Under the pieces are notes generated by a model. That model worked only from the letters and a program-made list of their open reading frames with translations, was not told the origin of the DNA and did no database searches. Of a DNA stretch of 64,000 bases, positions 29,525 through 64,000 are shown one piece after another; the stretch's first letter is position 1, and the number at the start of each line of letters is the position of its first letter. Origin of the DNA: an uncultured Nitrososphaerota archaeon (GTDB lineage: Archaea; Thermoproteota; EX4484-205; JAAOZP01); NCBI GenBank assembly GCA_964635675.1, contig CAZWPT010000016.1:18522-82521 (forward strand). The letters run 5' to 3'. A program made the translations under genes and the position numbers.

Positions 29525-30616
29525 ATGGGTTTAGAGAAATCTTTAGAATGGATTGTTGAAGAAGCTAAAAGGCTTGTCGACAAATCCATGTTGAAGGCTT
29601 CAGACGGAACGGTGCTTTTCAGGCCAGACGGTGGGGGAAACTATAACGCGCTTTGGACGAGAGACTTCTGCTACATGCTTGAAGGCCTCCCTGGCCATAT
29701 CGCGCATGACGACGCTGTTAAAGCCTATTTCTTAATACTCAGGGGTCAGAGAGAAGACGGTGCAATACCGGATAGGGTGGACGCAGACGGGAAACCCTAT
29801 TATAATGTTTTAGGAACAAGCCCTCCGACCGACAACCCCCAGTTCGCGGTTAAGATCGCTTGGGAAATATGGCGTTCCTACGGGGATATTGCCCCCTTCG
29901 CCCAGACTTCAAGAATGCTGACGAAAGCCTTACGCTCTCTCCCTTTAAAGTCGGATCTAGTCTGGATTGACCCGAGCAGCCCGCACTCAGCCTACGGCTT
30001 TACGGACTGTATTGCTAAAACTGGAGGGGAGCTCTTTTCCTCACTACTCCTGTATGAGGCGCATGTTAAAATGGCTGAGCTTTATCAAGCCATTGGGGAA
30101 ACGGTTGAGGCCAGGATGCATGAGGCTGAGGCGCGTAGAGTAAGAAAGGCCCTGGAAAGACTCTGGTCTGGGGAAGGCTATTTCTTCGCAGCCTCTGAAG
30201 ACTGTAGGCAGCCAGACGTATGGGGGTCTGCATACTCGGTATGGATAGGGGCGGTTGACAATCAGAGAGCCCTAGAGGTTTCCCGATGGCTTTCAAGCCG
30301 GTTCAGCAGGATAGTTAAGTGGGGGCAGGTGAGACACCTGCCTGAGCCATGTTTCTGGGAGAAAACGCTTACTGAAGTTGAGCCCGGCACCTATCAGAAC
30401 GGTGCCTACTGGGGAACAGCTTCAGGATGGGTTGCCTACGCCATATCTCTCACCGACCCTCAACTGGCTGAGAGAATGGTGATGAGCCTCGTTGATTTCT
30501 GTAAGTCGGAGGGGAAAGCCTGGGAATGTGTAAACCTGGGCTACAGGAAGTGCCCAGACTACGTGGCTACTTTAGCCTGTCCTTCAGCCCTGGTTGAAAA
30601 GCTGAAAACAAGCTAG
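29525..30616 (+). CDS. hypothetical protein, possibly an (alpha/alpha)6-barrel glycoside hydrolase-like
   Basis: 363 aa. The WTRDFCYM and W-rich segments are reminiscent of six-hairpin glycosidases. There is no firm family assignment. Confidence 0.3.
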   Translation: MGLEKSLEWIVEEAKRLVDKSMLKASDGTVLFRPDGGGNYNALWTRDFCYMLEGLPGHIAHDDAVKAYFLILRGQREDGAIPDRVDADGKPYYNVLGTSPPTDNPQFAVKIAWEIWRSYGDIAPFAQTSRMLTKALRSLPLKSDLVWIDPSSPHSAYGFTDCIAKTGGELFSSLLLYEAHVKMAELYQAIGETVEARMHEAEARRVRKALERLWSGEGYFFAASEDCRQPDVWGSAYSVWIGAVDNQRALEVSRWLSSRFSRIVKWGQVRHLPEPCFWEKTLTEVEPGTYQNGAYWGTASGWVAYAISLTDPQLAERMVMSLVDFCKSEGKAWECVNLGYRKCPDYVATLACPSALVEKLKTS

Positions 30617-30695
30617 TCGGCGTTCTTCAAAACAGGATTTAAAATCGTAAGGCTGGCGGATTTCAAGCCCGGCTTGGAAAACTTCTTAGGCAAGT

Positions 30696-31802
30696 ATGCA
30701 GGGATTCCTGAGGAGAGGAGGGCCAGCCATGGAGGTTAGGGAAAGGATTGTAAGCGTTCTTAGTGGTAGAATGCCCGACAAGATACCTTGGCTAATATAT
30801 TCAAACCATCTCCCCAGGGGGAGTTTTGAACGTAGAATGAGGGAAATGGGGCTTGGGCTGGATGAAAGATGCAGCATCTACAGGATCTTTATGCCGAACG
30901 TGAGGATCGAGAGTAGAACAATCGGAGACTATGTTTACACGACTTACCGTACACCGGTTGGAGAGCTTCACTCCAAGACTCGGATTGGAATGAGATTCCA
31001 ATTCCCAGGCGGCTCCTGGACGGTTGAATATCCAGTCAAAAACACGGATGATGTTAAGGCTTTAAGGTTCATGATAGAGGATACTGTTTACGAGCCGGAT
31101 TACGAGAATTATGTTCGAATAAAGGAGGAACTTGGAGAAGACGGGATTGTCACTGTCTGGGCTGACTACACTCCTTTAATGAAGATAATCGTCAGATACA
31201 TGGGTTTCAGGACTTTTGCATTAATGTACCGCAAAAACCGCGGTGTGATAGAAGACCTGATCAACATTTTAGACGAGAGCTTCTCAAAAATGTACAGGAT
31301 TATAGCTGATTCGCCGGCGGAAATAGTTAGGATAGGCGACAATACTGATTCACTACTGGTATCCCCAAGCCTGTTCGAAAAGTACTGTCTCCCATACTAT
31401 GACAAGTATGCCGAGACCCTTCACGAGAAGGGGAAAATAGTTATTTCACACATGGATGGTAGGCTTAAAGCGCTTAAGAATCTGATTGCTAAAACTAGGC
31501 TTGATGCTATAGAGGCCTTCACACCCCCACCGGGAGGCGATTTACCGCCTAGAGAAGCCAAGGAGGCTTGGAGTGATAAAGCTGTATGGATGAATTTCCC
31601 GGAGGAAGTGTTTCTTAGAACCCCTGAAGAGATTGAACGCTATACCACTGCACTGCTTGAGGAAATAGCTCCTGGAGAAAGCTTCATCATAAGTGTTACT
31701 GAAGACATTCACCCTGAGCATTATAGAAAAGGGATTGAAACAGTAACGAAGACACTCTGCAGGTACGGCGGACTCCCTATAAAGCCGCCTTTAGCCGGCT
31801 GA
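30696..31802 (+). CDS. uroporphyrinogen decarboxylase (URO-D) family protein (the same family as MtaA/MtbA-type methylcobamide methyltransferases)
   Basis: 368 aa. The N-terminus RERIVSVLSGRMPDKIPW and the central and C-terminal regions fit URO-D/CIMS-like conservation (..SPSLFEKYCLPYY.., ..ISHMDG..). The true start is probably MEVRER (30729). Confidence 0.5.
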   Translation: MQGFLRRGGPAMEVRERIVSVLSGRMPDKIPWLIYSNHLPRGSFERRMREMGLGLDERCSIYRIFMPNVRIESRTIGDYVYTTYRTPVGELHSKTRIGMRFQFPGGSWTVEYPVKNTDDVKALRFMIEDTVYEPDYENYVRIKEELGEDGIVTVWADYTPLMKIIVRYMGFRTFALMYRKNRGVIEDLINILDESFSKMYRIIADSPAEIVRIGDNTDSLLVSPSLFEKYCLPYYDKYAETLHEKGKIVISHMDGRLKALKNLIAKTRLDAIEAFTPPPGGDLPPREAKEAWSDKAVWMNFPEEVFLRTPEEIERYTTALLEEIAPGESFIISVTEDIHPEHYRKGIETVTKTLCRYGGLPIKPPLAG

Positions 31803-31952
31803 CTGGAAGCCTAGTTCACCAGAGTAGCGAAGCATGGAAAGTAGACAAGCCTAGACGGTTAAGTATACAAGTGGAACCCGTGAATAGGAAAAATGTTTTC
31901 CCTTTCACCAAAAAGTTAAAATATTTTCAACATCTCATTGTAACGATGCAAA

Positions 31953-32708
31953 ATGGGAATAGCACTGCAGCTTTACTCGGTGCGTGAAGACTGCGCTAAG
32001 GATTTTAATGGAACCCTTAAGGCGGTTGCCGAAATGGGTTATGAAGGCGTTGAGTTCGCCGGATATTATGGTAGGAGCGCCGAAAACCTTAGGAGTATTC
32101 TTGACGACCTCGGTTTGAAAGTGGCTGGAACACACATCGGCGTAAACACCCTGCTAGGTGAAGAGTTCGACAAGACTGTAGAATTCAACCGCATCCTAGG
32201 AAACAGGTTTCTAATAATTCCTGGTCTACCGGCGGAAATGCTGAGCTCAAAAACAAAGTGTCTCGAAACAGCCGGCTTGTTCAACGATATTGCTAGAAGG
32301 CTTAGGAAAGAAGGGATGAGGATAGGCTATCATAATCACATGGCTGAGTTCAAAAAGGTTGACGGGGAGAGAATATGGGACCTGTTTTTCAGCTCCACCA
32401 TCCCCGAGGTGGTGATGCAGCTCGACACTGGGAACGCGATGCACGGGGGAGTGGATGCGGAAGGCGTTCTGGAGATCATCCGGAAGTACCCTGGCAGAGC
32501 CGTAACCGTGCATGTGAAAGAGTATTCCTCTAAAGACCCTAAGGCGGTGGTTGGAGAAGGGGAAATGAGGTGGCGTGAATTCTTCGAGCTGTGTAAAACA
32601 ATTGGTGGAACCGAGTGGTATATTGTTGAGCAGGAGAGCTATGCCTACCGGCCTCTCGAATGCGTGAAGCGCTGCCTAGAAAACCTTAGAAGAATGAGGC
32701 TTGTGTAG
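31953..32708 (+). CDS. sugar phosphate isomerase/epimerase (xylose isomerase-like TIM barrel)
   Basis: 251 aa with the N-terminal GIALQLYSVRED...GYEGVEFAGYY typical of AP endonuclease 2 / xylose isomerase-like TIM proteins. Confidence 0.7.
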   Translation: MGIALQLYSVREDCAKDFNGTLKAVAEMGYEGVEFAGYYGRSAENLRSILDDLGLKVAGTHIGVNTLLGEEFDKTVEFNRILGNRFLIIPGLPAEMLSSKTKCLETAGLFNDIARRLRKEGMRIGYHNHMAEFKKVDGERIWDLFFSSTIPEVVMQLDTGNAMHGGVDAEGVLEIIRKYPGRAVTVHVKEYSSKDPKAVVGEGEMRWREFFELCKTIGGTEWYIVEQESYAYRPLECVKRCLENLRRMRLV

Positions 32709-32853: not shown

Positions 32854-33642
32854 ATGAAGATATTGTACGAATTTATTCCGAAAGCAGACTTTTTAATTTT
32901 AGCGGAAGAAATAAAGGATTTAGTAGATGGTTTTAACATCACCGATAGTGCAGGGGGAATACCTGCTCCCAGCGCTACTGCAGTAGCCTGCGCGGTTAAG
33001 ATAAAGTATCCTCAAAAAATAATAATTCCAATGCTTATTACTAATTATAAAGGACCGGTTGAAATTGCTGCTGTAGCAAGTGCTTGTGAAGCCTTAGGAA
33101 TTTACGGAATGGTACCTGATCCGGGAGATGCTCCCAGATACGGATACCCAATAAGGACGAGAAAAGACGGAACCTGTGAAATTCTTTCCGATAAGGAGGA
33201 GATTGAAAGATTTAGGCGTGAAACTGGTCCTGCAGAAGAGGTTAGAGATTTCCTGCGTAATACCGTGAAGATTAAAAAGTTGAAATTAGGCTGTCTCTTA
33301 ACTAGTCGCAGACCTACGCAAGAGGCAATTGCACGCATAAGAGACGCTTGGGATTTCTCCCTTTTTCTGCGGTTAGAAAAGAGCTCTCTACCAAAGTTAA
33401 AAGAATTGGCTTTGGAGTGTAAAAACTTAGGAAAACCCATTTATCCATATTTTGTGGTTGAGACACCTAAAAATAAAAAGATTCTGGAAAGAATCGGATG
33501 GCCTTCTACAACAACCCTGGAAAAAGCGGAAGAATTTTTAGAAGAGCTTCAAGGAGTAGTAGACGGTATAATTTCTACTTGTCTGGGAGATATTGAGGCA
33601 GATAAAAAGTTGCTTAATAAACTGCAGAAATTTAGAGAATAA
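32854..33642 (+). CDS. methylenetetrahydrofolate reductase (MetF/MTHFR)-like protein
   Basis: 262 aa. The LYEFIPK motif matches MetF SFEFFPP and NITDSAGG matches VTYGANSG, and the layout matches the MTHFR TIM barrel. The gene is markedly AT-richer than its neighbours and is preceded by a strong bacterial-type SD (GGAAGGAGG). Confidence 0.5.
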   Translation: MKILYEFIPKADFLILAEEIKDLVDGFNITDSAGGIPAPSATAVACAVKIKYPQKIIIPMLITNYKGPVEIAAVASACEALGIYGMVPDPGDAPRYGYPIRTRKDGTCEILSDKEEIERFRRETGPAEEVRDFLRNTVKIKKLKLGCLLTSRRPTQEAIARIRDAWDFSLFLRLEKSSLPKLKELALECKNLGKPIYPYFVVETPKNKKILERIGWPSTTTLEKAEEFLEELQGVVDGIISTCLGDIEADKKLLNKLQKFRE

Positions 33643-34061: not shown

Positions 34062-35798
34062 ATGCCGGTGAAAAAAAGCTGGCCGGTGCCGAGCGATATT
34101 GAAATCGCTTACAAAACCGAGCTTTACCCAATTAAAAAGGTTGCGGAGCATGCTGGGATTCTGGAAGAAGAATTGGAGCCCCATGGGAAATACGTGGCTA
34201 AAATCGATTATAGGAGCGTTCTCAACAGGCTGAAAAACAGGCCCAATGGAAAATTGATTATCGTAACTGCAATCACCCCCACGCCACTCGGCGAGGGAAA
34301 GACAACAGTCTCCATAGGTTTGGGCCAAGCCTTCTACGAAAGAGGTTTAAAGGTTATCAATACTCTGCGAGAACCATCTAAGGGTGTTACGTTTGGAATA
34401 AAGGGAGGCGCAACCGGAGGCGGCTACTCCCAAGTCCTGCCGATGGACAGGATTAATCTTAATTTCACAGGAGACATACCAGCGGTGGAAATTGCCCATA
34501 ACCTTTGTGCAGCAGCCATAGATGCTAGCATACTTCACGGAAACCCTTTAAGCATCGACCCCCTATCAATCGAATGGCCCTATTGCATGGATGTGGAGGC
34601 GAGGGCTTTAAGACGAGCCGTCATAGGATTGGGAGGAAGGTCAAACGGTTACCCTAGGGAGGCGCGCTGGAGCATAACTGTAGCGACGGAAACAGCGGCC
34701 ATTCACGCATTAGCCACTGGGCTGGAAGATTTAAGAAACAGGCTTGGAAGAGCTGTTGTAGCCTACACCTATAGTAGAAAACCGGTAACGTGCGAAGAGC
34801 TTGGAGTAGCCGGGGCCATGGCAGCTCTGCTCGTGGAAGCCATTAAGCCTAATCTAGTCCAATCCACAGAGGGCCACCCTGTTTTAATCCATGGATTCCC
34901 GTTTGCCAACATAGCGCATGGTACCAACTCGATAATAGCTGATCTAGTGGCTTTGAAGCTTGCGGATTACGTTATCTGCGAGACCGGGTTTGGCTCTGAA
35001 TGCGGCTTCTCCAAGTTCTGCGATATTGTATGCCGCCAGTCCCCCGAGATAAGGCCTGATTGCGCCGTCATCGTCTGCACGGTTAGAGCCCTTAAAGAAC
35101 ACGGCGGCGCCTTCCTGCTTAGCCCAGGAAAGCCCTATAAGAAGGTTAAAAGGGCGGCTGAGACGGAAAACCTCCAAGCGGTTGAAAAAGGTTGTGAGAA
35201 TTTAGCTAGACACATAGAAATAGTCCATAAATACGGTATTCCCGCCGTAGTAGCCGTCAACAGGTTTACCACTGACACTGAGAGGGAGATAAGGCTGGTG
35301 TGTGAAAAAGCCATTGAGGCTGGCGCCGATGACGTTGCCGTTGTAGACCCCTGGTCCAAAGGAGGGGAGGGTTGCCAGGAACTCGTTGACAAGGTTCTTG
35401 AAGCGATGAGGAAGCCGCGCGAGCTGAGGTTTCTTTACTCGGATGAAGCCACCATCAAGGAGAAAATAGAGACCATAGCTACAGAGCTCTATGGAGCTGG
35501 CGACGTGAAATATTCCCCTGAAGCAGAGGAAAAGATAGAGTTTTACAGTAGCCTAGGGTACGACAGGCTTCCGGTAAACATGGCTAAAACACCCCTCTCC
35601 CTTTCGCACGACCCTCTCTGGAAGAATGTGCCTAAGAACTACACGCTTCCAGTCAACGACATTTTCGTCTTCGTTGGAGCCGGCTTCCTTATCCCGATAT
35701 GCGGCGAAATACAGCTTATGCCCGGTCTCCCGAGGAAACCCGCCTTCCTAGGGGTCGACGTGGAAACGGAAACCGGAAGGATAAGAGGCCTCTTCTAG
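34062..35798 (+). CDS. fhs: formate--tetrahydrofolate ligase
   Basis: 578 aa with the FTHFS signature PTPLGEGKTT and full-length conservation. A perfect SD GGAGG sits 9 nt upstream of the ATG. Confidence 0.92.
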   Translation: MPVKKSWPVPSDIEIAYKTELYPIKKVAEHAGILEEELEPHGKYVAKIDYRSVLNRLKNRPNGKLIIVTAITPTPLGEGKTTVSIGLGQAFYERGLKVINTLREPSKGVTFGIKGGATGGGYSQVLPMDRINLNFTGDIPAVEIAHNLCAAAIDASILHGNPLSIDPLSIEWPYCMDVEARALRRAVIGLGGRSNGYPREARWSITVATETAAIHALATGLEDLRNRLGRAVVAYTYSRKPVTCEELGVAGAMAALLVEAIKPNLVQSTEGHPVLIHGFPFANIAHGTNSIIADLVALKLADYVICETGFGSECGFSKFCDIVCRQSPEIRPDCAVIVCTVRALKEHGGAFLLSPGKPYKKVKRAAETENLQAVEKGCENLARHIEIVHKYGIPAVVAVNRFTTDTEREIRLVCEKAIEAGADDVAVVDPWSKGGEGCQELVDKVLEAMRKPRELRFLYSDEATIKEKIETIATELYGAGDVKYSPEAEEKIEFYSSLGYDRLPVNMAKTPLSLSHDPLWKNVPKNYTLPVNDIFVFVGAGFLIPICGEIQLMPGLPRKPAFLGVDVETETGRIRGLF

Positions 35799-35990
35799 AG
35801 TGTCTGCCCACAATTCCTTCAAACATTACGAGCTGTGTGATGAAGCGCTTGAAAACCCGTGCAGAACATAACGCTCTTAGACTAGAGAGGCCGCTTTAGA
35901 AACAATCGTTGCGAGGCTCCTCAGCCTAACCATCAAGGGCTAAGTGTCCACTATGATTCTAAAAGTATAAAAAGGGGGTAGAGGAAAGGG

Positions 35991-36905
35991 ATGAGGATGT
36001 TCAGGTTTAAGCAGGAGCAGAAAATTTTTGATATTGCCGGCGTGAAGGTTGGTGGCCAGCCGGGTCAACTACCTACTGTAATGATAGGAAGCATATTCTA
36101 TGGTAAACAGAAAATATTTGAGGATGAGAAGGCTGGAGTGTTCTCTAAAGAGAAGGCTGAAGACCTCTTGAATAAGGAGGGGGAGATATCGGATAAAACC
36201 GGTAATCCGAGGATTGTAGACGTATGCTGCACATGGCCCCAGGCTTTTGGAAAACTCATCGAGTTCGTGGCTGACAAGATCGACGGGCCCCTCGCTATAG
36301 ACGGAACTACTGAGGAGGCGAGGATTGCAGGAGCCAGATACGTCGGTGAAGTCGGGTTGTCTGAACGCGTCGTCTACAACTCGATAATGCCGCATATTAA
36401 AGAGGCTGAGATAGCCGCGATTAGGGAGGCTAGGATCAAGTCCGCCGTCTTACTGACGTATAACGCTAAAAGCCCTACGATAGCAGGGAGAATGCAGGTG
36501 CTTGATGAGCTTTTAGCCTTAGCCTCGAAAGCTGGTGTCGAGAAAATCCTGGTGGATACGACTGTCCTCGACATCCCAGACCCGGGACCAGTCAGCAAAG
36601 TCGTCTACCTGGTAAAGGAGAAATACGGGTTACCAGCCGGGGCGGGAACGCATAACGCAGTCCAGAGGTGGAATAAGATGCGGAGAATGGATAAAACACT
36701 GTTCTCAATCGCAAGCAGCGTAGCCGACGTGCTTCCCATATTCATGGGGGCGAACTTCGTAATATATGGGCCTATAGACAATGCTTTAAACGCGTATTTC
36801 CACTGTGCACTGGCTGACGCTTACGTGGCTTACAGCATGCGGCAGGAGTTTGGAACAAGACCATTAACCAGCAACCATCCGTTGTTCAAAATATTCAAGG
36901 CATAG
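35991..36905 (+). CDS. MtrH/AcsE-family pterin-binding methyltransferase (methyl-THF/H4MPT:corrinoid methyltransferase-like)
   Basis: 304 aa. The N-terminus MFRFKQEQKIFDIAGVKVGGQPGQLPTVMIGSIFY closely follows the MtrH family start. Confidence 0.65.
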   Translation: MRMFRFKQEQKIFDIAGVKVGGQPGQLPTVMIGSIFYGKQKIFEDEKAGVFSKEKAEDLLNKEGEISDKTGNPRIVDVCCTWPQAFGKLIEFVADKIDGPLAIDGTTEEARIAGARYVGEVGLSERVVYNSIMPHIKEAEIAAIREARIKSAVLLTYNAKSPTIAGRMQVLDELLALASKAGVEKILVDTTVLDIPDPGPVSKVVYLVKEKYGLPAGAGTHNAVQRWNKMRRMDKTLFSIASSVADVLPIFMGANFVIYGPIDNALNAYFHCALADAYVAYSMRQEFGTRPLTSNHPLFKIFKA

Positions 36906-37046: not shown

Positions 37047-37748
37047 TCAACACCTGTCTTGTAGGGGTTTCTCCTCCCCTCCGCGAAGTATCCTAGCCTT
37101 CCCGTGCTCAACTATGATTCTTCCTTCCTGGAAAAGACGGATCCCTTCCACCAAGGCTTCACCCTCAGCCTCTTGAACCCTCCTCTTCAAAGTCTCCTCA
37201 TCGTCATCTTCCCTGACCTCAACAGCCTTCTGTATTATTATTGGTCCAGCATCCATTTTCTCGTCAACAAAGTGGAGGGTGCAACCTGTAATCTTCACTC
37301 CGGATTCAAGCACTGCGCGATGGACGTTTAGGTCCCAGCCTAGAAAGGCTGGGAGAAGCGAGGGATGAATATTCATAATCCTATTCCTAAACTTTTTCAC
37401 GAACTGGGGGCTTAGGATCCTGTTATAACCTATGAGCAGCACGAGGTCAACCTTCCTACGCTCAAGCTCCACGGCGACCTGCATATCGTAATCCACAGGA
37501 TCCTTACCCTTAGGGTCTATGAATATTGCCTCTATACCGTTTCGTCTCGCCCGCTCCAGTGCGTACGCGTCCTTCTTATTGCTTATGAGACAGACTATTT
37601 CAGCATTCAATCTTTTGTCTCTAATAGCCTCCAGGATGGGCTCCATGTCGGTAGCGCGGGTTGATGCAAGTATACCTATTCTCAGCAACGCGCACACACT
37701 ACGAGGCCTCGGAGGCGCATTCCACCAGATTACGTATGATGGTCGCAA
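37047..37748 (-). CDS. purN: phosphoribosylglycinamide formyltransferase
   Basis: Formyl-transferase core (RIGILAS..., NIHPSLLPAFLG, HFVDEKMDAGPII). The track start (TTG 37748) overlaps the folD 3' end. The true start is probably near 37688. Confidence 0.75.
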   Translation of the reverse strand: MRPSYVIWWNAPPRPRSVCALLRIGILASTRATDMEPILEAIRDKRLNAEIVCLISNKKDAYALERARRNGIEAIFIDPKGKDPVDYDMQVAVELERRKVDLVLLIGYNRILSPQFVKKFRNRIMNIHPSLLPAFLGWDLNVHRAVLESGVKITGCTLHFVDEKMDAGPIIIQKAVEVREDDDEETLKRRVQEAEGEALVEGIRLFQEGRIIVEHGKARILRGGEEKPLQDRC

Positions 37749-38532
37749 CCGTCACCGGGCCCACCCCACCAGGAACCGGGGTTATCGCGGACACTTTTTG
37801 GGAAACGTTTTGAAAATCCACATCTCCCACGAGAGTGCCTTCGACGAAGCTGGTTCCAGCATCGATTACTACTGCGCCTTCAGCAACCATTTCGTCGGTT
37901 ATGAGCCGTGGGACACCGGTTGCAGAGATTAAGACATCCGCTTCCAGTGTCTTCTCGCTCAAGTTTTTAGTCTTGACGTGGCAAACGGTGACTGTTGCCA
38001 TTCGCGAGGTAAGCATCGCGAACAGGGGCCTTCCGACTAGTATACTGTTGTTCACGACGACAACATCAGCACTCTCAACGTTAATTCCATACCACTCCAA
38101 AATCCTAATCACAGCGTTTGCCGTCGCCGTGGGCCTGGCTTCCCGACCAGATAGCAATCTTCCAAGGTTTACCGGGTGCAGACCGTCAACGTCCTTCCTA
38201 ACGTCTAAGGCTTCCAATACGTTCAGCGGCGACACGTTTTTCGGAAGTGGTAGTTGAACCACTATACCATGAACACCTGTATCCTTATTCAACTCCTTTA
38301 TGAGCGAGATGAGCTCGGCCTCGGAAGGATTGTTAAGCTCATGCACCACTGCTCTCCCCCCTACAGAGTTGCAGGCTTTAGCCTTCATCTTAACGAAAGA
38401 ATCCTGGGCCTTTGAACCTGAAGCCTTTATAATGTGTAGTGATGGTGTGAAACCCAGCTTCTCGATCCTTGCCTTAGCCTCAGCCAGAATAGCGTCAGCC
38501 ACCGGCTTACCACTCAATATCCTAGCCGCCAT
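37699..38532 (-). CDS. folD: bifunctional methylenetetrahydrofolate dehydrogenase / methenyl-THF cyclohydrolase
   Basis: 277 aa. The FolD N-terminus ILSGKPVADAILAEAKARIE, VVQLPLPKNV and a C-terminal Rossmann domain are all present. Confidence 0.88.
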   Translation of the reverse strand: MAARILSGKPVADAILAEAKARIEKLGFTPSLHIIKASGSKAQDSFVKMKAKACNSVGGRAVVHELNNPSEAELISLIKELNKDTGVHGIVVQLPLPKNVSPLNVLEALDVRKDVDGLHPVNLGRLLSGREARPTATANAVIRILEWYGINVESADVVVVNNSILVGRPLFAMLTSRMATVTVCHVKTKNLSEKTLEADVLISATGVPRLITDEMVAEGAVVIDAGTSFVEGTLVGDVDFQNVSQKVSAITPVPGGVGPVTVATIIRNLVECASEAS

Positions 38533-38835: not shown

Positions 38836-40224
38836 ATGAAATGTTTTTATAGGGAACTTCTTTTGCAGTCGGGAATGAACGAGGGATCCGGCAACGCTAA
38901 GAATGAATTCAGGAAATTAGCGAGGGAAAGGATCCTAGCGATGTCGGGTCAGGAGAGGAAGGATAAGAGCTCAAAGGCGGTTTCGAATCTTAAAAGACTA
39001 GAGGAGTTCTCGAGGGCAAAGTGCGTCATGGTTTACGTTTCTAAAGAGGACGAGGTTGATACGATCGGGCTTATTACTGACATGTTGAAATCCGGTAAAA
39101 GAGTCGTAGTGCCTCTTGTTGATCAAGAAAGCGGGGAGCTGATTCCCTGCGAGATAACAACCCTTGAAGAACTAGTTGCCGGAACATTCGGCGTGATGGA
39201 GCCGGATCGCAAGAATGCGAGAATAGTTAGCACGGATGAGATAGACCTTGTGGTGGTTCCTGGGAGGGTTTTTGACAGAAATTGCAACAGGCTTGGCAGG
39301 GGAAAGGGCTACTTCGACAGGTTTTTAAAGAGATTTAACGAAGGGAAGAAAGTGATCGGTTTAGCCTTCTCCGAACAGGTTTTCGACAGTATACCGGTTG
39401 ACGAGAACGATGTGAAGGTTGACATCGTGGTTACTGAATCCAGCATCATACGGCGCGACCCTAGAGAACCGAGAGCGGTTTTAAGTAAAAAAACATTCGA
39501 CGTTCATAGGCTTGCCACCTCCTCCCTGTTCATGGCGCTCTTCATCGTGCTAAGGGCAGTCCCAGCCTTCCCAATCATAGGGGTACCTGGAGGAAGCTTC
39601 CCGGTTTCAGACGTCATTCTGCCGCTTTACGGCGTCTTGCTGGACCCCGTCCACGGCGCCACCGTAATCCTCCTGGGGACGATTCTAGGTTTCTTAATAA
39701 AGCCTCCTAGGTTCCTTTACCTAGACTTCCTACCACCGCTGGTTAACACTTTGACGGTAAGTCTGCTCTGGAGGAGGAAAACGTGGTTAGCAATCCTCAT
39801 CTATGTCTCCGCGTTAACCGTTTTCATGACGGGGCCGTTTAGCCTGCTCCTTATACACCTTGACCTTCCCGGCTTAGAGGTGGACTTGCCATTCCACTGG
39901 CTGCACCTCATCGCAATACCCGTCTCCCTGGTTCTCATTAGACTTGGCAATTTTAAACATAAGGCTGACCCAATATTATTGAAGCTTTCAGGATGCGCCC
40001 TACTCGGAACCATGGCGCAACACTCCACTGGTAGTGCGCTATTTGAATACGTGTTCGGCCTAACCGGAATGATTAACAGAGAAGGGTTTGAGAAAATCTG
40101 GTATACGGTCTTCTGGATATATCCTATAGAGAGGATGCTTCTAGTCCTAGCCAGCACGCTGGTTGGAGTACCAGCTACACGAGTACTGACTAGGATGATA
40201 TGGAGGCCTCAGAACCCGTCGTAA
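38836..40224 (+). CDS. 5-formyltetrahydrofolate cyclo-ligase (MTHFS) fused to a C-terminal roughly 240-aa polytopic membrane domain (ECF S-component-like)
   Basis: One uninterrupted 462-aa ORF. Residues 1-200 carry the MTHFS motifs (CVMVYVS, DLVVVPGRVFDRNCNRLGRGKGYFDRFL). Residues 225-462 form 6-7 TM helices with an ILPLYGVLLDPVHGATVILLGTILGFLI segment that resembles ECF vitamin S-components. Confidence 0.6.
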   Translation: MKCFYRELLLQSGMNEGSGNAKNEFRKLARERILAMSGQERKDKSSKAVSNLKRLEEFSRAKCVMVYVSKEDEVDTIGLITDMLKSGKRVVVPLVDQESGELIPCEITTLEELVAGTFGVMEPDRKNARIVSTDEIDLVVVPGRVFDRNCNRLGRGKGYFDRFLKRFNEGKKVIGLAFSEQVFDSIPVDENDVKVDIVVTESSIIRRDPREPRAVLSKKTFDVHRLATSSLFMALFIVLRAVPAFPIIGVPGGSFPVSDVILPLYGVLLDPVHGATVILLGTILGFLIKPPRFLYLDFLPPLVNTLTVSLLWRRKTWLAILIYVSALTVFMTGPFSLLLIHLDLPGLEVDLPFHWLHLIAIPVSLVLIRLGNFKHKADPILLKLSGCALLGTMAQHSTGSALFEYVFGLTGMINREGFEKIWYTVFWIYPIERMLLVLASTLVGVPATRVLTRMIWRPQNPS

Positions 40225-41537
40225 GGCTCACCCGACCATATCGGCCTTGCTTCCCCAACGGTGAAAACCGAGCCCGTAACCAGTATTCTACCTTCTTCCC
40301 CAGCGCACGATAATGCTCGAGCCACCGCCTCCCTAACAGTCGGCTTAGAACTGTATTTAGCATCCAGACTCTTCAAAACATCCTCCATCCTCTCAACCGG
40401 GAGAGCCCTCCCCATGACGCCATGCTGAGTCAGGATGAACTCGTCCGTGACCCTTGCAATAGACCGGAGAATCTTGTCATACTCCTTATCCGAGGAAATA
40501 CTGACGACTGTCTTAAACTTGGCTCCCGGCAGCATCTCCTCTATGCTCGACGACAATGCTTCAGCAGCCGCCGGATCCTTAGCGCAATCCAATATTACTA
40601 GGGGACGTTTACTAATCGGCTCCAGCCTCCCTGGCCAAACAATGTCGGCAAGACCCCTCCTTATGGCTTCCTCGTTAAAGTTTGATCCGCCAGTTAACTC
40701 GGAGAACTTGAGATAGCTCGCTATGGCCGTCGATACGTTCACCGCCTGAAAACTCCCCCTGAGCGAGACCTTAAGGTTCTTCAACAGCGTCTTCCCCAGC
40801 TCAATATCTAAAGTCATCCCGGTCAGGTCGGACCTTAAAACCCTGTGCTTGACATCCCTAGGTACCAAGGTGAGCTCTGAGCCCAATTCCCTGCAGCGTT
40901 CCTCTATGACTCTGAGCGCTGAGCCTGAACAAGCCGATACCGTGGGGCGTCCACGCCTTATTATGCCTGCTTTCTCAAAGGCTATTTTCTCAACAGTATC
41001 ACCCAAGTGCTTCATATGCTCTAAAGAGACGTTGGTTATTACTGAGAGCACAGGGTCGCATGCGTTTGTCGCATCGAGCCTGCCTCCCATACCCACCTCG
41101 ACGACGGCCACGTCAACTTTTTTCATAGAGAAATACTTATACGCCATCGAGACGTTACACTCGAAAAACGTTGGAAACCGTCCAAGCCTTTTCGAGACTT
41201 TTTCACCAGCCTCTTTAACCTCCTCATACGTCTCCACGACTTCCCTCCTGGTTATTTCCCGGCCATCCACAACTATCCTCTCGGTGAACCTGCATAGGTG
41301 AGGCTTCGTGAAAGTTCCAACCCTAAGACCCTCCTCGCGTAGGATTGAGCTTATCATGCTGACGGTGGAACCCTTCCCATTAGTACCCCCTACTAGGATT
41401 ACGGGATAGTCCTGCTCCGGGTTTCCAAGCTCGTTCAAAACCCCCTTGACAACATCCAAGCCTAGCTTTATCCCCCTCAGCTCGTAGAGCTCCTTGAGAA
41501 CCCGCAGGTACTCGGCGTCATCAGTCCAAGCACTCAA
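40209..41537 (-). CDS. folC: folylpolyglutamate synthase / dihydrofolate synthase
   Basis: 442 aa. It has the Mur-ligase P-loop VGGTNGKGST, and the FolC-type central and C-terminal domains are present. Confidence 0.8.
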   Translation of the reverse strand: MSAWTDDAEYLRVLKELYELRGIKLGLDVVKGVLNELGNPEQDYPVILVGGTNGKGSTVSMISSILREEGLRVGTFTKPHLCRFTERIVVDGREITRREVVETYEEVKEAGEKVSKRLGRFPTFFECNVSMAYKYFSMKKVDVAVVEVGMGGRLDATNACDPVLSVITNVSLEHMKHLGDTVEKIAFEKAGIIRRGRPTVSACSGSALRVIEERCRELGSELTLVPRDVKHRVLRSDLTGMTLDIELGKTLLKNLKVSLRGSFQAVNVSTAIASYLKFSELTGGSNFNEEAIRRGLADIVWPGRLEPISKRPLVILDCAKDPAAAEALSSSIEEMLPGAKFKTVVSISSDKEYDKILRSIARVTDEFILTQHGVMGRALPVERMEDVLKSLDAKYSSKPTVREAVARALSCAGEEGRILVTGSVFTVGEARPIWSGEPYDGF

Positions 41538-45443: not shown

Positions 45444-45881
45444 TTAACTTTTTTCCTTCCACCATTGGAAAAGCTTTTTACTCAACTCATGTATCTTCCT
45501 AGCACTATCTATTGCTTTTTCAGCATCCTCTTTGGAATACAGTTCTCTAGGAGGAATGAGTGCTTTCTCGTCGCCGTAGAAAGCTGGGCCTCTCTCCTCC
45601 ACAAGCCTCTTACTCGCAACGCTGATTGTCTCCAGTTCAAACCTGAACCAATCCGGGAGTTCCCTCATATGCGCTATCTCAACAAGGGCGTCGCTGACAT
45701 CGTGTTCACGCGGATACTCTATTCCCAGAAGTCTGAGAACAGCTTTCAGGCTTAGTTCAACACTTTCCTGTGCTCTCCTAATCGTTCTGTGATACATATC
45801 CTTGGCGAAGGCTTCTTCAGCCTCATAGAGGGAATACTTAGCGTCGTCGAGATAGCCTTTAGCCATAGCCTCAGTATTCAA
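45444..45881 (-). CDS. HEPN domain protein (toxin of a HEPN-MNT module)
   Basis: 145 aa, all-alpha, with a HEPN-like region. It lies immediately downstream of the MNT gene and overlaps it by 4 nt. Confidence 0.65.
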   Translation of the reverse strand: MNTEAMAKGYLDDAKYSLYEAEEAFAKDMYHRTIRRAQESVELSLKAVLRLLGIEYPREHDVSDALVEIAHMRELPDWFRFELETISVASKRLVEERGPAFYGDEKALIPPRELYSKEDAEKAIDSARKIHELSKKLFQWWKEKS

Positions 45882-46417
45882 ATCTCAACAGCCTCACCAC
45901 GTTTTATATCCGGTTTCAAATCCCAAAGCCATGTTCCGTTCTTAAGGTAGATACGTCTAGCTTTCAATTCATCCAGCCTTCTCCTGAGGCTCGTGAAAAT
46001 CGACTCCATGAAACTATCCTTGTCAACCAAGATAACTGCATCCTCAACCATATCCAGGTAGACAGGCCTATGGATTTTTGCTTCCTCCGGCGTAAGAGGG
46101 TAGAATTGCACCCACGTGTTAATGCCTTTCTTCCTAAGCTCCTTGTAAGCTTGAGCGTCTCTCAGCTTAATCAGGATTTTAGCCATGACCTCCATTTTCT
46201 CACTAATCCTTTTAGGAAGATTTTCTGCAACAACCAGAATATCCGTATCGCTAGTCGGCTTAGCATCTCCTCTTGCTACAGAACCGAAAACAACTACACT
46301 TACAAGTCTTTCTCCGAAAAAACCATTAAGAAGACTAAGAACCTCTTTAATAAACTTCCTTCTATCCGGATCCATTATACTGGCTAATCCATGTCTAGGC
46401 TTCATCAATCCTTGCAT
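45878..46417 (-). CDS. minimal nucleotidyltransferase (MNT; antitoxin/AMPylase partner of HEPN)
   Basis: 179 aa with the Pol-beta NTase signature FGSVARGDAKPTSDTDILVV. Confidence 0.75.
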   Translation of the reverse strand: MQGLMKPRHGLASIMDPDRRKFIKEVLSLLNGFFGERLVSVVVFGSVARGDAKPTSDTDILVVAENLPKRISEKMEVMAKILIKLRDAQAYKELRKKGINTWVQFYPLTPEEAKIHRPVYLDMVEDAVILVDKDSFMESIFTSLRRRLDELKARRIYLKNGTWLWDLKPDIKRGEAVEI

Positions 46418-47929: not shown

Positions 47930-48013
47930 CGTGAAGAGCCTTGGAGAAACTATGCTGCCAGGCTTCCTGCAAAGGGCTCAGGTGTTTAGAGCAGCCCACA
48001 GCTCTGAGCCTCC

Positions 48014-49018
48014 TCAGAGATCCGTGTAGTCGAGCACTAAGGGGAGCCCGGGTAAGGCCGGTATTCTAGTTAGGCTGCTCGCCATCCTCCAGGCGTCTAT
48101 GCTCCACCTGCGCTGAGAAGGGGTTTCCGAACCCTTATCCTTTATTGAGAAGGCTTTCACGAGCATTGGTGAGGATGCTATGAGTGATGAGACTATTCCG
48201 CCTAAGAGGCCCAGCGGATTCAGAAAGACTGTTGCTAAAAGCCCGGTCAGCAAGCCTACTGCGACGATGGCTGCGGAGGCGGTTAGCATTGTTGCCCGTG
48301 ACCTTGTGCTCAACGGGTACTCGACGAATAGGACCCTGCCCCCGGACGCGTCTAGGAGAACCCTGTGCGGCTTACCCTTGTAGACGTACTCCATTAGCCA
48401 GAATGGGTAGTGGACGAGCCCAAGGTAGTTGACTTCAACGTTCTCAAGCCTCTTCGAGCCTCCGCAGCTCCTGCTAGCCTCAGCCATAGCCTGACCAGAT
48501 ATTAACCGGTATGCGGCGTTGTAGGCTTCCTCGTAGCTCAAGGTAGGCATGTAGAACCTGCTCCTCTGGGCTTGACCAGGGTTGAAGAAGCTTCTCCCCC
48601 TCACCGAGAACGAGAGTTCCTTGGCGTAGCTGTCGAGCCAGGTGCCTGTGTAAGCTGCCAGAATAGGCGTGTTCCGGGTCTCAAGGTAGCTGGCCTGCTT
48701 ACCGCCATAGGAGCAGGAGGAGTATGCCTTGCAGCTGAAAACATGGTAGGGAACGTTGTAGAGCTCGGCTTTGCGAAGATTAGCCTCAGCGTTGAAATCA
48801 TCCGGGACGCCGTACCTCCTGGTTATGAACTGCATTGCTTTACGCCAGGCTGACGGGCTCTCCACGTAGGCTGGGAACATGTAGTAGGTCCAGGTCTTCC
48901 CGGTTGAAAGCTCGAAGGTGTGGCCGCAGTAGGGGCAGACGATTATTGAGGCTGATTGCGGCGCGTTTATAGAAGCGTTGCAGTTTAGGCACGTGACTGT
49001 CTTCAGACTCATTTCCAC
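48014..49018 (-). CDS. zinc-ribbon membrane protein of unknown function (paralog A)
   Basis: 334 aa with an N-terminal CxxC-x17-CxxC ribbon (CLNCN...CPYCG), a roughly 200-aa soluble domain, a YxYKGK motif, and 2 C-terminal TM helices. Confidence 0.5.
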   Translation of the reverse strand: MEMSLKTVTCLNCNASINAPQSASIIVCPYCGHTFELSTGKTWTYYMFPAYVESPSAWRKAMQFITRRYGVPDDFNAEANLRKAELYNVPYHVFSCKAYSSCSYGGKQASYLETRNTPILAAYTGTWLDSYAKELSFSVRGRSFFNPGQAQRSRFYMPTLSYEEAYNAAYRLISGQAMAEASRSCGGSKRLENVEVNYLGLVHYPFWLMEYVYKGKPHRVLLDASGGRVLFVEYPLSTRSRATMLTASAAIVAVGLLTGLLATVFLNPLGLLGGIVSSLIASSPMLVKAFSIKDKGSETPSQRRWSIDAWRMASSLTRIPALPGLPLVLDYTDL

Positions 49019-49971
49019 CTTTCCTCCCTAACGTCGCTAACAGCCCTGCTCGCCAGGAGGGCTCCGGCTGCTGAAACAAGTATGAAGCCGAGTACTGGAA
49101 ACCATTCTCTGAAAGATGTTAAGAGGGCCAGTATGAAGGCGCCTGCCGCTACTGACAGGGTGCTTCCGAGTATGTACAGTATTCTCTGGCCTAGGAAGAC
49201 TGGTTCCGAAACCCTTAGGAATTGAAGGGTGTAGCCTGAGACGCTTGCCCTATACATTCCACCCTTATACTTGTATACTAGGCTCCAAATCGGGGCCAGC
49301 AGTATCCAGAGCGAGTTCACCCTGGCCTCGCAGGAATAGTAGTAGAAGCCGTCTAAGCCGTTGGAGGAGCGTGTGCTTTCCCTCAGCTCGTCCTCAACCA
49401 TGTCCTTAAGCTCGTCCTCAGCCTCCTCGGGGAGAAGCTCAGCGTTTAAAACCTGGAGCCCAACGTTCCTCCAGTCTATCGCAGCCAGGGGTTGAGGGTC
49501 TTTAGCGGACTTCGCCTGGCTCACAAGCTCCTCCAAGCCGTACTCGGCAGCCTCCCTCCTCGCCGTGAAGGCGAGCCTCATCGAAGTGTTGAAAGACCCT
49601 TTCTTCGTCACGGTCTTGGTGACGTATGATTTACCCCTTTTCTCAGTAACCCTCCGGAAGCCGGACCACTCGCCGACTGCGGAAACATCCCCCATGAGAA
49701 TCGGCACGTAGAAGCCCTGAGCCTCGACAAGCTCAATGTCGCTGTAGACCCTGCTCATATCTGGGTCGCTCCTCATCCTGCTCCAGAAGGCGTTCACCAC
49801 CTCGTCCCTTGTCCGAGTCGGCAGTATGAATATTTCAAACCTACCTGTGGAGAACCAGTTGACCGTCCCACAGTATTCGCACACGCACACTATTGTCTCA
49901 GGAGTGTAATTCAAGGGAGCACCGCAGTTTGAGCATTTGAAGACCTTTTCAGATATGGTTGACTCTGTCAA
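49009..49971 (-). CDS. zinc-ribbon membrane protein of unknown function (paralog B)
   Basis: 320 aa with an N-terminal ribbon (CSNCG...CEYCG), a YKYKGGMYRASVSG motif and 2-3 C-terminal TM helices. It overlaps paralog A by 10 nt and the upstream gene by 4 nt. Confidence 0.5.
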   Translation of the reverse strand: MTESTISEKVFKCSNCGAPLNYTPETIVCVCEYCGTVNWFSTGRFEIFILPTRTRDEVVNAFWSRMRSDPDMSRVYSDIELVEAQGFYVPILMGDVSAVGEWSGFRRVTEKRGKSYVTKTVTKKGSFNTSMRLAFTARREAAEYGLEELVSQAKSAKDPQPLAAIDWRNVGLQVLNAELLPEEAEDELKDMVEDELRESTRSSNGLDGFYYYSCEARVNSLWILLAPIWSLVYKYKGGMYRASVSGYTLQFLRVSEPVFLGQRILYILGSTLSVAAGAFILALLTSFREWFPVLGFILVSAAGALLASRAVSDVREERWK

Positions 49972-50378
49972 CGCCTACCAATCCTTGAAACTATTACCCC
50001 GACCACGACGATTATTATGAGGGATATGCTCAGGTTAAGCGGCAGGTTTCCGGTGAGAAGCGTTAGGAAGAGTGAGAAACCAAGGCAGCACATCACTAGT
50101 CCCCAAATAAGGTAGTACTTGAAGTCGGCAGCGTGAATCGAGAAGAAAACAGTGTAGAACCCAAGCATGATGAGCGGCAGTGAAACTAGAATAAGCGGTT
50201 CACCGTAGCCTGTTGAAAACAGTATGCCGTCTATGCCTATTGAAACTAGCAGGACAGCCAGCGCGTAGCCTCCATACCCGACTTTTCTACTCATCTCATT
50301 AGCCTCAGAACCACAAGGCGAGCTTTGAATATATAACTTTTCCCTATCTTCGCCAAGGATTGAAGGGACATTGAGCAC
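49968..50378 (-). CDS. small polytopic membrane protein (4 TM)
   Basis: Four hydrophobic helices. The likely true start is the internal Met at 50294 (MSRKVGYGG...), with a TATATA box at 50329-50337. Confidence 0.4.
   Translation of the reverse strand: MLNVPSILGEDREKLYIQSSPCGSEANEMSRKVGYGGYALAVLLVSIGIDGILFSTGYGEPLILVSLPLIMLGFYTVFFSIHAADFKYYLIWGLVMCCLGFSLFLTLLTGNLPLNLSISLIIIVVVGVIVSRIGRR
50329..50337 (-). promoter_or_regulatory. TATA-like box (TTATATATT on the minus strand) upstream of the 4TM / Zn-ribbon membrane operon
   Basis: About 35-40 nt upstream of the internal Met at 50294. Confidence 0.3.
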
Positions 50379-50384
50379 CTAGCC

Positions 50385-50690
50385 TCAATTTTCCTCGTTA
50401 TGCTCACCAATTCTTCTGGGCCAAGCTCCTCGTGAGAACCTAGCGCGCGCTAATAGGACAACCCTTCCATCCCTCATGAGTTTTCCGATACGTCTAACCG
50501 CCTCCTCAGGATTAACATGTGAAAAACCGTTTTCATCCCAAGCGGCAACGCCGCCAGACCTGGTCGCCACAAAGTAGTTAGACTGAGTGAAAAACCTCTT
50601 TAACAGGAAGGTCTTCCCGGTTTTCCGACTCCCGTAAACCAGTACCCATCCTATTAGACCTCTTAATTCGTCTTCCTCCCCCTGCTTACT
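50385..50690 (-). pseudogene. degraded N-terminal fragment of an archaeal-type P-loop ATPase (PF01637-like)
   Basis: An in-frame stretch ...GWVLVYGSRKTGKTFLLKRFF... (Walker A) has no in-frame ATG/GTG/TTG upstream. An ATG sits one frame off, with an extra G in a GGG run. The reading frame stops after about 105 aa, whereas family members are 350 aa or longer. Confidence 0.4.
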
Positions 50691-50700
50691 ATGATATGAG

Positions 50701-50736
50701 GAATATTCTCCACAGAATATTCCCTTTAGAATATTC
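50701..50736. repeat. three direct copies of the 8-bp palindrome GAATATTC at exact 14-bp spacing (candidate operator array)
   Basis: GAATATTC at 50701, 50715 and 50729, with context gGAATATTCtcc / aGAATATTCcct / aGAATATTCtca. On the minus strand the array lies just downstream of a TATA-like GTTTATGA, upstream of the ATPase fragment. Confidence 0.6.
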
Positions 50737-50812
50737 TCATAAACCTTTAGCTTATCCTATGCACCAGTTCAGATCTGCCTCTTGACCATCGACTCTACTT
50801 GTTTAATTCAAA

Positions 50813-51964: not shown

Positions 51965-51966
51965 TC

Positions 51967-52503
51967 CTAGACACCTCTCTTAATGGAGACTATCTCCTCC
52001 TCTCTGGAGGAGAAGGCTGATTCAAGCTCCCTAGCCTTGGCTTCAAGCTGCTTCAAGAGATTTGGGAGAGCATCAAGGCTTCCGGCTGCAGCAGCGTTGC
52101 CAGCCTCCTCAGCTATTCTGGAGACCTCTTCACAAGCCCCTAGAAGCCTGTAGTCATACTCCATCAGCTTGTCGAGCTCAGCCTCGCGAACCTTGACGAG
52201 GTCGAAGAAGCCCGCGTAACCGTAGTCAGCATGCCCAATCTTGTTTATAACCCTGTCTAGGACCGCGGAAACCCTGTTTATATTCTTAAACAATCCAGCT
52301 GCATCCGAGTCAGCAGCCTCCCTTGAGACTGTTTTCAAATGGGACCTGGCTGCCTCAAGCTTTTTAACCATGAAATCCCTTAGAAGCTTGTCCGCTTCCC
52401 TCCTAACCTCCTTCTGCTTATACCCCCTGTAGCCGGGGAGATAGGAGGCTATCTTCTCAGCCAGTCCTCTTTTCTCCTCATACTCCTTTATGAATTCACT
52501 CAT
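51967..52503 (-). CDS. hypothetical coiled-coil protein
   Basis: 178 aa, charged and alpha-helical. It is 2 nt upstream of the SPFH gene, so it is probably co-transcribed. Confidence 0.4.
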   Translation of the reverse strand: MSEFIKEYEEKRGLAEKIASYLPGYRGYKQKEVRREADKLLRDFMVKKLEAARSHLKTVSREAADSDAAGLFKNINRVSAVLDRVINKIGHADYGYAGFFDLVKVREAELDKLMEYDYRLLGACEEVSRIAEEAGNAAAAGSLDALPNLLKQLEAKARELESAFSSREEEIVSIKRGV

Positions 52504-52567
52504 GAATAGATGTGATTCATAACTAGCTTAAAAACATTACTTATAGAAGAATTTAAAAACACGTTTC

Positions 52568-53575: not shown

Positions 53576-53586
53576 CTTTCTCCATT

Positions 53587-54597: not shown

Positions 54598-54655
54598 GCT
54601 TACTCAGATTATTCATACTGTTTTATAAGTATTGGCGTCTCAAACCCTGTTCCCG

Positions 54656-55684: not shown

Positions 55685-55702
55685 GGCAGAGCTTTAAGGA
55701 TG

Positions 55703-58022: not shown

Positions 58023-58194
58023 TTGGAACTCGTTCAGCCGGTATCACCTTATTAAAAATGGCCTAAGGTAGTTTTTAAAGCTTGCCTGACGGCCCGCCAC
58101 AGCAAGCCCCATCCCCCGGGTATTCAGAGGTTTAGATAAAGTTAAATCCTACGAGGCGAGACGTTTCCCTACACAGGAAGGCAAACGGTTAGAG

Positions 58195-59203: not shown

Positions 59204-59262
59204 AGCAGGATTTTTCCACCGGGGGGATTTAAGTTTTAAACAACGCTGAAATTAAACGGGGC

Positions 59263-60417: not shown

Positions 60418-60494
60418 GTGCTACGGGCCGTTCAGCAAGAGGCTTATAAGCATTGACAACAAAGTTTTTAAAAGGCTTTTAAAGCAATAATAAT

Positions 60495-61043: not shown

Positions 61044-61159
61044 TCATCCTAAGAGCAGCTTAAACCAGACAGTTAAGCCGGTTTTTCTCTAAACGCTTAA
61101 GCATAGACGTTTAGACATAATCTTCTTGACTAAATCCATATATCCTGTTCTTTATCAGG

Positions 61160-63484: not shown

Positions 63485-63513
63485 ATGTAAAGCCGATTTA
63501 ACGCGTTAAGAGT

Positions 63514-63942: not shown

Positions 63943-64000
63943 TTTTTCAAAGAGCTGTCCAACGTAGGAGGCTGCGGTCTGGGAGGGCCTTGTGAGTACT

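Follow-up and report, generated by a model that had tools for sequence, protein, structure and literature searches.

Methyl transfer between a corrinoid and a reduced pterin has been described for two sequence families, and the proteins of the MtrH family (Pfam PF02007) act either as soluble enzymes or as a subunit of a membrane complex. MtgA of Desulfitobacterium hafniense (PDB 6SJ8, 6SK4), a TIM-barrel protein, shifts the methyl of CH3-Co(III) onto tetrahydrofolate (THF, H4F) and is encoded together with a first methyltransferase (MT1), MtgB, and a corrinoid protein, MtgC. Stand-alone second methyltransferases (MT2) of archaea are MtoA, from Methermicoccus shengliensis, and the non-complex MtrH-like proteins of 'subgroup III' (Kurth et al. 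2021); MtoA takes the methyl group off a methylated corrinoid protein and passes it to a pterin, not to coenzyme M (CoM), is encoded in an operon with MtoB, MtoC and MtoD, and is thought to use tetrahydromethanopterin (H4MPT) in vivo. The MtrH of the membrane-bound MtrA-H complex of methanogens carries out pterin-to-corrinoid methyl transfer, and AcsE/MeTr and the pterin module of MetH, which belong to the other family (PF00809), perform the same chemistry in either direction, with CH3-THF on one side and Co(I) or CH3-Co(III) on the other. The subject of this study is an MtrH-like gene of a 64,000-nucleotide stretch of archaeal DNA (the window), an open reading frame (ORF) of 304 amino acids at 35991-36905 (+), which has fhs on one side and convergent purN and folD on the other and, unlike mtgA and mtoA, has no partner gene within the 64 kb.

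The window comes from a hot-spring member of the Brockarchaeota, the first archaea for which anaerobic methylotrophy without methanogenesis has been proposed (De Anda et al. 2021, PMC8065059). In that proposal MtaB or MttB, together with a corrinoid protein, feeds methyl groups into the folate branch; MtaA is missing, and 'another undescribed protein' has to hand the methyl carried by the corrinoid protein over to THF. The same study found no H4MPT branch, methyl-coenzyme M reductase (MCR) or CODH/ACS, and reported methylene-THF reductase as missing in most Brockarchaeota genomes. MtrH is absent from its main text, and its supplementary KEGG Orthology (KO) table lists the gene as K00584 mtrH (GD2_1_scaffold_5776_curated_4, our locus L016; NODE_9_length_87611 gene 12, our locus L018). 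The gap between methyl group and THF is still cited in a 2024 paper.

It is considered probable that the MtrH-like protein is a soluble MT2 of the MtgA/MtoA type, which would shuttle methyl groups in both directions between a corrinoid protein's cobalt and the N5 of THF as part of a system whose genes are dispersed over the genome. Enzymes of this type are already known; what is unusual is the place of the gene, away from its partners and within a block of folate genes.

Family, active site and start of the MtrH-like protein

The protein matches PF02007 over its full length (profile positions 1-295 of 299) with 291.4 bits against a cut-off of 22.8, and it passes the NCBIfam model of an MtrH-family subfamily, NF002142, with 294 bits against 287. 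Given that a Pfam scan (E <= 0.001) returned no match to Pterin_bind (PF00809), it is not of the AcsE, MetH or dihydropteroate synthase (DHPS) type. The original prediction, made from the DNA letters, had called the protein MtrH/AcsE-like and proposed a profile search to separate MtrH from AcsE and MetH; that search comes down on the side of MtrH, and the DHPS-like identity which the prediction had set against its own proposal is contradicted by the missing PF00809 match. Within the family, a phmmer search of the PDB gave as best match 8z9u (annotated MtrH; 240 bits, 42% identity), and MtgA (6sj8) reached 231 bits with 41% identity over 298 aligned residues, whereas the MtrH of the Mtr complex (9qtp) reached only 170 bits. 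By these scores the protein is nearer to the soluble, non-complex MtgA type than to the MtrH that forms part of the Mtr complex.

The paper on MtgA describes a pterin site made up of Ser32, Asp75, Asp102, Asn129 and Asp194, with the D102A mutant inactive, an Asn227 that touches N5 and an Arg236 that binds the glutamate tail of THF. In a HMMER alignment S32, D75, D102, N129, D194 and N227 of MtgA stand opposite S34, D77, D104, N130, D189 and N222 of the MtrH-like protein, such that all six pterin-binding or N5-activating residues are kept; the tail-binding arginine is kept as R231, as are Tyr35 and Phe243. Across an alignment of 26 sequences of the clade the six active-site positions are invariant, save for S34, which is at least 90% conserved. 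The two proteins therefore share Pfam family, fold family, pterin residues and the tail arginine, and the same reaction, CH3-Co(III) to THF, is proposed for the MtrH-like protein.

The first ATG of the ORF (35991) is not conserved in sister species, being ACG in L019 and GTG in L017, while the second (35997, MFRF...) is conserved and coincides with the N-terminus of the homologues; the true gene is thus probably 35997-36905. Ahead of it, in the spacer that separates it from fhs, CTAAAAGTATAAAAAGG is the sole invariant block across seven Brockarchaeota species, the rest of the spacer being 61% identical. This block lies approximately 20 nt ahead of the start, with its TATA run approximately 28 nt before ATG 35997, and looks like an archaeal promoter composed of a transcription factor B recognition element (BRE) and a TATA box. 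Read in this manner, it would give the MtrH-like gene a transcription start of its own and a leaderless or nearly leaderless mRNA. No RNA family was matched in the window by Rfam, and so no riboswitch lies close to the gene; no tRNAs were found in the window.

Gene neighbourhoods and the corrinoid partner

Neighbourhoods were compared over 80 species-level loci, with one genome per species (seven Brockarchaeota and 73 others), searched with reference proteins. Protein matches bear the names Bathyarchaeia and Thermoproteota, which would have placed the window in the Bathyarchaeia, but the closest loci (L013-L019) come from 'Candidatus Brockarchaeota' metagenome-assembled genomes (MAGs), namely GD2_1, DRTY-6.bins.80 and relatives, with 90-97% identity and full synteny, and on this basis the window is assigned to the Brockarchaeota. 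Among the 73 other species, whose proteins are 41-75% identical, a corrinoid protein, RACo activase or MttB is encoded within 10 kb of the relative in 41, in keeping with the expectation of the original prediction that MtrH-like genes normally have a corrinoid protein and an activase for neighbours; the same is true of none of the seven Brockarchaeota loci. Complete clusters of corrinoid protein, two MttB, RACo and MtrH occur at 72% identity, and in one relative at 68% identity the RACo gene ends 2 bp before the MtrH-like gene. Clusters of this composition in Bathyarchaeia, Culexarchaeia and Asgard archaea belong to the same clade, and the literature assigns them roles in accord with that put forward for the MtrH-like protein, but they are compact, whereas the Brockarchaeota gene stands apart from such partners, inside a folate block and behind a putative promoter of its own. 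Given the proximity of corrinoid protein, RACo or MttB genes in 41 of the 73 species, the MtrH-like proteins are a corrinoid-protein-dependent clade, which two lineages also tie directly to the folate methyl branch.

The first of these lineages is the Brockarchaeota, where all seven species share one block consisting of a URO-D-like gene, a COG1082 gene, a gene for a 262-residue protein (p262), and the genes for Fhs, the MtrH-like protein, PurN, FolD, a fusion of 5-formyl-THF cyclo-ligase (MTHFS) with a FolT-like domain, and FolC. The Pfam and NCBIfam calls on the neighbours (Table 1) likewise confirm the setting between fhs and convergent purN and folD. The second lineage is represented by an archaeal MAG labelled Nitrososphaeria (L080, 3267-8829), in which FolD, MetV, MetF and the MtrH-like protein are encoded co-directionally, next to a RACo gene and accompanied by FolC and by an Fhs that is 81% identical to that of the window; the whole forms a compact operon of THF methyl branch and corrinoid methyltransferase genes. 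The synteny in seven of seven species, the FolD-MetV-MetF-MtrH order of L080 and the reported absence of an H4MPT branch together argue for THF as the acceptor.

It is possible to read the same protein as an MtoA-like or MtrH-like CH3-corrinoid:H4MPT methyltransferase whose folate setting is coincidental. Source annotations do name it 'tetrahydromethanopterin S-methyltransferase subunit H', its score against the mtrH equivalog of the Mtr complex (TIGR01114) falls just short of the cut-off (269.2 bits against 271.4), and the bathyarchaeial relatives are assumed to use H4MPT. However, this reading is improbable, given that the folate synteny recurs in every Brockarchaeota species, that L080 joins the gene to FolD and MetVF in an operon, that the H4MPT branch is reportedly missing from the Brockarchaeota, and that Pfam scans of the window found no H4MPT-linked gene. 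A role as subunit of the Mtr complex was dropped: the same scans found no mtrA-G gene in the window, and the lineage is reported to be without MCR or CoM metabolism.

The corrinoid partner that an MT2 would need was sought first within the window and then in related genomes. Some 60 non-overlapping ORFs, covering all 64 kb, were each searched against Pfam, and tblastn was run with three archaeal corrinoid proteins. Neither search found a corrinoid protein, which extends to the entire window the earlier statement that no B12-binding protein is visible within 10 kb. Of the two explanations offered at that time, a partner encoded elsewhere or a different role for the enzyme, the first gains support from sister genomes. 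In one sister strain a protein with B12-binding_2 and B12-binding domains is encoded approximately 50 kb from a 95%-identical orthologue of the MtrH-like gene on the same 438-kb contig (Ga0080004_1124718), and in many sister strains the same 215-residue corrinoid protein, accompanied by RACo and MtaB or alone, adjoins the gene block with which the window begins. The published tables (De Anda et al. 2021, Supplementary Data 9) show for the MAGs GD2_1 and DRTY-6.80 one 215-residue corrinoid protein beside MtaB, with RACo and a URO-D protein alongside, and they place corrinoid protein, MtaB, RACo and the MttB homologues on scaffolds other than that of the MtrH-like gene. From the synteny of DRTY-6.80, a cluster of corrinoid protein, MtaB and RACo is predicted just left of the window, and this holds for the sister strains L094-L098 and L176-L179. 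Among the sister strains (regions L094 7029-7496, -; L095 1-4453; L176-L179) the corrinoid protein, encoded for example at 3806-4453 of L095, is kept beside a block of dihydrodipicolinate synthase (DHDPS) and fucose isomerase genes, while MtaB is full-length in the published DRTY-6.80 tables, reduced to a C-terminal piece of 155 residues in L094 and absent from L095 and L176-L179; a RACo gene lies at 5185-7032 of L094. 'Orphan' corrinoid proteins, retained where MtaB is truncated or absent, are therefore common in the clade.

Several observations weigh against the assignment as a THF-dependent MT2 with a dispersed partner. First, the protein falls far below the cut-off of the NCBIfam MtgA equivalog NF047990 (264.8 bits against 550), and four aromatic residues through which MtgA contacts the THF tail are replaced (H38 by Q, Y230 by Q, F251 by D and W272 by N). 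Second, sequence alone cannot fix the pterin specificity: MtoA takes H4F in vitro though its host makes H4MPT. Third, the evidence for a lack of H4MPT and CODH/ACS genes comes from published MAGs of 57-89% completeness. Finally, none of the B12-binding, RACo, MtaB, MttB or MtrA domains was matched in the 64-kb window, and the contig closest to it (L093, 97.4% nucleotide identity) carries unrelated genes at the site where the corrinoid protein is encoded in sister strains; the partner in the window's own genome is thus unlocated and could have been lost.

This last point, together with the truncation or absence of MtaB in several sister strains, raises the possibility that the MtrH-like gene is an orphan relic, decaying since the lineage lost its corrinoid protein, or that the enzyme has become independent of such a protein and uses free cobalamin or another acceptor. 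This scenario is very improbable for two reasons: first, the gene has an undamaged reading frame and invariant catalytic residues, identity over seven species is 90-97% and the promoter-like box is conserved, all of which argues for purifying selection on the gene. Second, many sister strains keep the corrinoid protein even without MtaB.

The MetF-like neighbour and the rest of the block

The coordinates of the block are collected in Table 1. Its more novel item is p262, which is encoded ahead of fhs and gave no match to Pfam or NCBIfam and none in the PDB by phmmer or profile; when 28 members of its family were compared with Pfam at E <= 10, there was again no match, PF02219 included. The family is tightly conserved at approximately 262 residues and mostly bacterial (further members are at 8001-8786 of L011 and 8001-8789 of L173), and p262 shares 74-80% identity with bacterial members that bear the labels Omnitrophica, Nitrospirae and Thermodesulfovibrionales. 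Given this identity and a G+C content of 39%, against 49% for the window, acquisition from bacteria by inter-domain transfer is suggested. A 262-residue ORF without Pfam match in a bathyarchaeial cluster of corrinoid protein and MttB (L008, 2520-3308) was considered as a further member and proved unrelated on comparison.

Table 1. Features of the folate block and its upstream neighbours (positions in the window)
Feature	Position	Strand	Evidence
URO-D-superfamily protein, syntenic with the folate block	30696..31802	+	Pfam URO-D, 63.6 bits
Xylose-isomerase-like TIM-barrel protein (COG1082 type)	31953..32708	+	Pfam AP_endonuc_2
p262, divergent MetF-like TIM barrel of 262 residues, proposed non-canonical methylene-THF reductase	32854..33642	+	Remote profile homology
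Fhs, formate--tetrahydrofolate ligase	34062..35798	+	Pfam FTHFS, 755 bits; NCBIfam equivalog, 692 bits (cut-off 652)
Putative BRE/TATA-type promoter element CTAAAAGTATAAAAAGG	35959..35975	+	Invariance in spacer alignment
MtrH-family methyltransferase (MtgA/MtoA-like, non-complex), proposed MT2	35991..36905, start probably 35997	+	Pfam, NCBIfam, PDB, residues
PurN-type formyltransferase, convergent with the MtrH-like gene	37047..37748	-	TIGR00639, 190 bits (cut-off 150)
FolD, methylene-THF dehydrogenase/methenyl-THF cyclohydrolase	37699..38532	-	Pfam THF_DHG_CYH and THF_DHG_CYH_C
5-formyl-THF cyclo-ligase fused to an ECF-S/FolT-like membrane domain	38836..40224	+	Pfam 5-FTHF_cyc-lig, 143 bits, and ECF_trnsprt
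FolC, folylpolyglutamate/dihydrofolate synthase	40209..41537	-	TIGR01499, 333 bits (cut-off 163)

Remote comparison points to a function for p262. An exhaustive profile search with the family gave 112 clusters, and 16 of the 40 remote relatives that were scanned match the Pfam family of methylene-THF reductase (MTHFR), PF02219, the best with E 2.8e-17. Aligned with hhalign against a sequence taken to be that of E. coli MetF, the family scored 89% probability and E 2.4e-6, with E6 and D92 of p262 opposite the catalytic Glu28 and Asp120, such that p262 combines the MTHFR/MetF fold with counterparts of both residues. The label 'MetF-like' given to this neighbour in the original prediction is supported accordingly by the PF02219-matching relatives and the MetF alignment. 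These comparisons make p262 a divergent MTHFR/Mer-like TIM barrel and a candidate for the 'missing MetF': it is probably a non-canonical methylene-THF reductase, which would link FolD to the MtrH-like enzyme, a step otherwise missing. Reports of a canonical metF are confined to other clades of Brockarchaeota (De Anda et al. 2021).

In two bacterial contigs, probably of one lineage, a p262 gene lies between fhs and fchA in a Wood-Ljungdahl cluster that runs from AcsE to FolD and CdhD, and AcsE there holds a position next to fhs and p262 equivalent to that of the MtrH-like protein in the window. The parallel between this layout, AcsE-Fhs-p262-FchA ... FolD-CdhD, and the Brockarchaeota block would allow the MtrH-like protein to be an analogue of AcsE, passing the methyl group of CH3-THF to the corrinoid iron-sulfur protein of CODH/ACS in a Wood-Ljungdahl pathway. 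That is hardly credible, given that no CODH/ACS gene was found by the Pfam scans of the window and that the subunits are entered as 'ND' for all Brockarchaeota MAGs of the published table; the analogy was dropped for want of such genes. The H4MPT, AcsE and Mtr readings are thus all disfavoured by the folate synteny and by reports that H4MPT branch, CODH/ACS and MCR are missing.

Upstream of the folate block, the genes for a 6-hairpin glycosidase-like protein, the URO-D-like protein and the COG1082 protein (29525-32708, +) stand in conserved synteny; among the seven sister loci the URO-D-like gene is found in five and the COG1082 gene, which lies between the URO-D-like and MetF-like genes, in six. 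The original prediction had regarded the URO-D-like gene as MtaA-like: its membership of the URO-D family stands, but its scores against the MtaA and MtbA models are 20-38 bits where the cut-offs are 235-600 (for instance 38 against 244), which rules out an MtaA orthologue. A PDB sequence search found no relative. A stretch 'SHMDG' presumably stands where MtaA carries its His-x-Cys zinc motif. The protein could be a corrinoid-dependent methyltransferase, either MT1 or MT2. According to the published Brockarchaeota tables (De Anda et al. 2021, Supplementary Data 9), URO-D (COG0407) and COG1082 genes recur near MttB homologues and near the RACo-MtaB-corrinoid protein cluster, a recurrence which hints that such genes belong to methyltransferase systems, possibly as MT1 for methylated sugars.

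This raises the possibility that the URO-D-like protein, the COG1082 protein, p262, Fhs and the MtrH-like protein form one catabolic module, in which the URO-D-like protein as MT1 demethylates methyl sugars of plant polysaccharides onto the single orphan corrinoid protein. An O-methyl group, for example from the 4-O-methylglucuronate of xylan, would pass to the corrinoid protein and, by way of the MtrH-like protein, to THF; p262, as a new class of MTHFR of bacterial origin, and FolD would oxidise it, and Fhs running in reverse would yield formate and ATP. So specific a module is thought rather doubtful. If true, it would amount to a methylotrophy from methyl group to formate, with substrate-level phosphorylation, in an archaeon that is neither methanogenic nor acetogenic.

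The direction of methyl transfer must also be weighed, as the known families (MetH and MeTr as against MtgA) catalyse it both ways. In the anabolic direction, CH3-THF made from formate by Fhs, FolD and the MetF-like protein would load the corrinoid protein, and the methyl group would then go to homocysteine, the final step being carried out by a core-MetE or by the URO-D-like protein as a thiol methyltransferase; the whole would be a split, MetH-like cobalamin-dependent methionine synthase. Other Brockarchaeota MAGs do flank the genes for corrinoid protein, MtaB and RACo with a short MetE-like gene (COG0620) and ThyA, the KO tables contain no metH anywhere and, among the entries listed, no metE match for GD2_1, and Loh et al. 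2021 raise the same option for pairs of corrinoid protein and MtrH; the conserved upstream position of the URO-D-like gene would also fit. Nevertheless, no MetE-like gene was found in the window by the Pfam scans, the URO-D-like protein scores far below the thiol methyltransferase models, and the relatives of the MtrH-like gene neighbour catabolic MT1 genes (MttB) far more often than methionine genes. An anabolic role is hence unlikely, although it is retained as a live alternative that is compatible with a catabolic one.

The remaining genes of the window call for brief comment. With its listed TTG start (37748), purN shares 50 nt with the 3' end of folD (37699-37748), and its orthologues are called at 197-202 residues; the real start is therefore probably some 30 codons downstream. 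The cyclo-ligase fusion unites a folate salvage enzyme and a folate-transporter-like domain in one protein, an unusual architecture; the C-terminal ECF_trnsprt match, at 30.2 bits, is just under its cut-off of 30.7, and the NCBIfam model of the folate ECF-S component matches weakly (22 bits, cut-off 60). A HEPN and nucleotidyltransferase (MNT-type) pair at 45444-46417 (-) is likely a toxin-antitoxin module, and a similar pair directly adjoins the corrinoid protein gene in the sister strains L176-L179. Genes for sugar and polysaccharide use are abundant at 1-24000 and 48000-64000, including alpha-L-fucosidase, L-fucose isomerase, a BNR sialidase-like protein, acetyl-xylan-esterase-like hydrolases, CBM9, FGGY kinases and a GlpA-like dehydrogenase set, which fits the plant-polymer-degrading lifestyle described for the Brockarchaeota.

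Consequences for methylotrophy in Brockarchaeota

In the preferred reading, that of a shared MT2 serving a dispersed system, MT1 enzymes encoded elsewhere in the genome (MtaB for methanol, homologues of the MttB family) would methylate the single 215-residue corrinoid protein, with the RACo activase also encoded elsewhere and the MT2 transcribed from its own putative promoter inside the folate block. The MtrH-like protein would then shift the corrinoid protein's methyl group onto THF, p262 would oxidise the resulting CH3-THF to CH2-THF, and FolD would take CH2-THF to CHO-THF, from which Fhs could free formate with a gain of ATP, or the C1 units could go to biosynthesis.

The MtrH-like protein is thus most likely the MT2 to which De Anda et al. 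2021 referred as an undescribed protein, and the locus offers candidates for both steps that have been open in the Brockarchaeota: the MtrH-like gene for the passage of the methyl group to THF and p262 for methylene-THF reductase. It also indicates that corrinoid methyltransferase systems need not be operonic, such that surveys which look for an MT2 next to a corrinoid protein will miss cases of this kind. Beyond the Brockarchaeota, the p262 family may account for the 'missing MetF' calls in some Wood-Ljungdahl bacteria.

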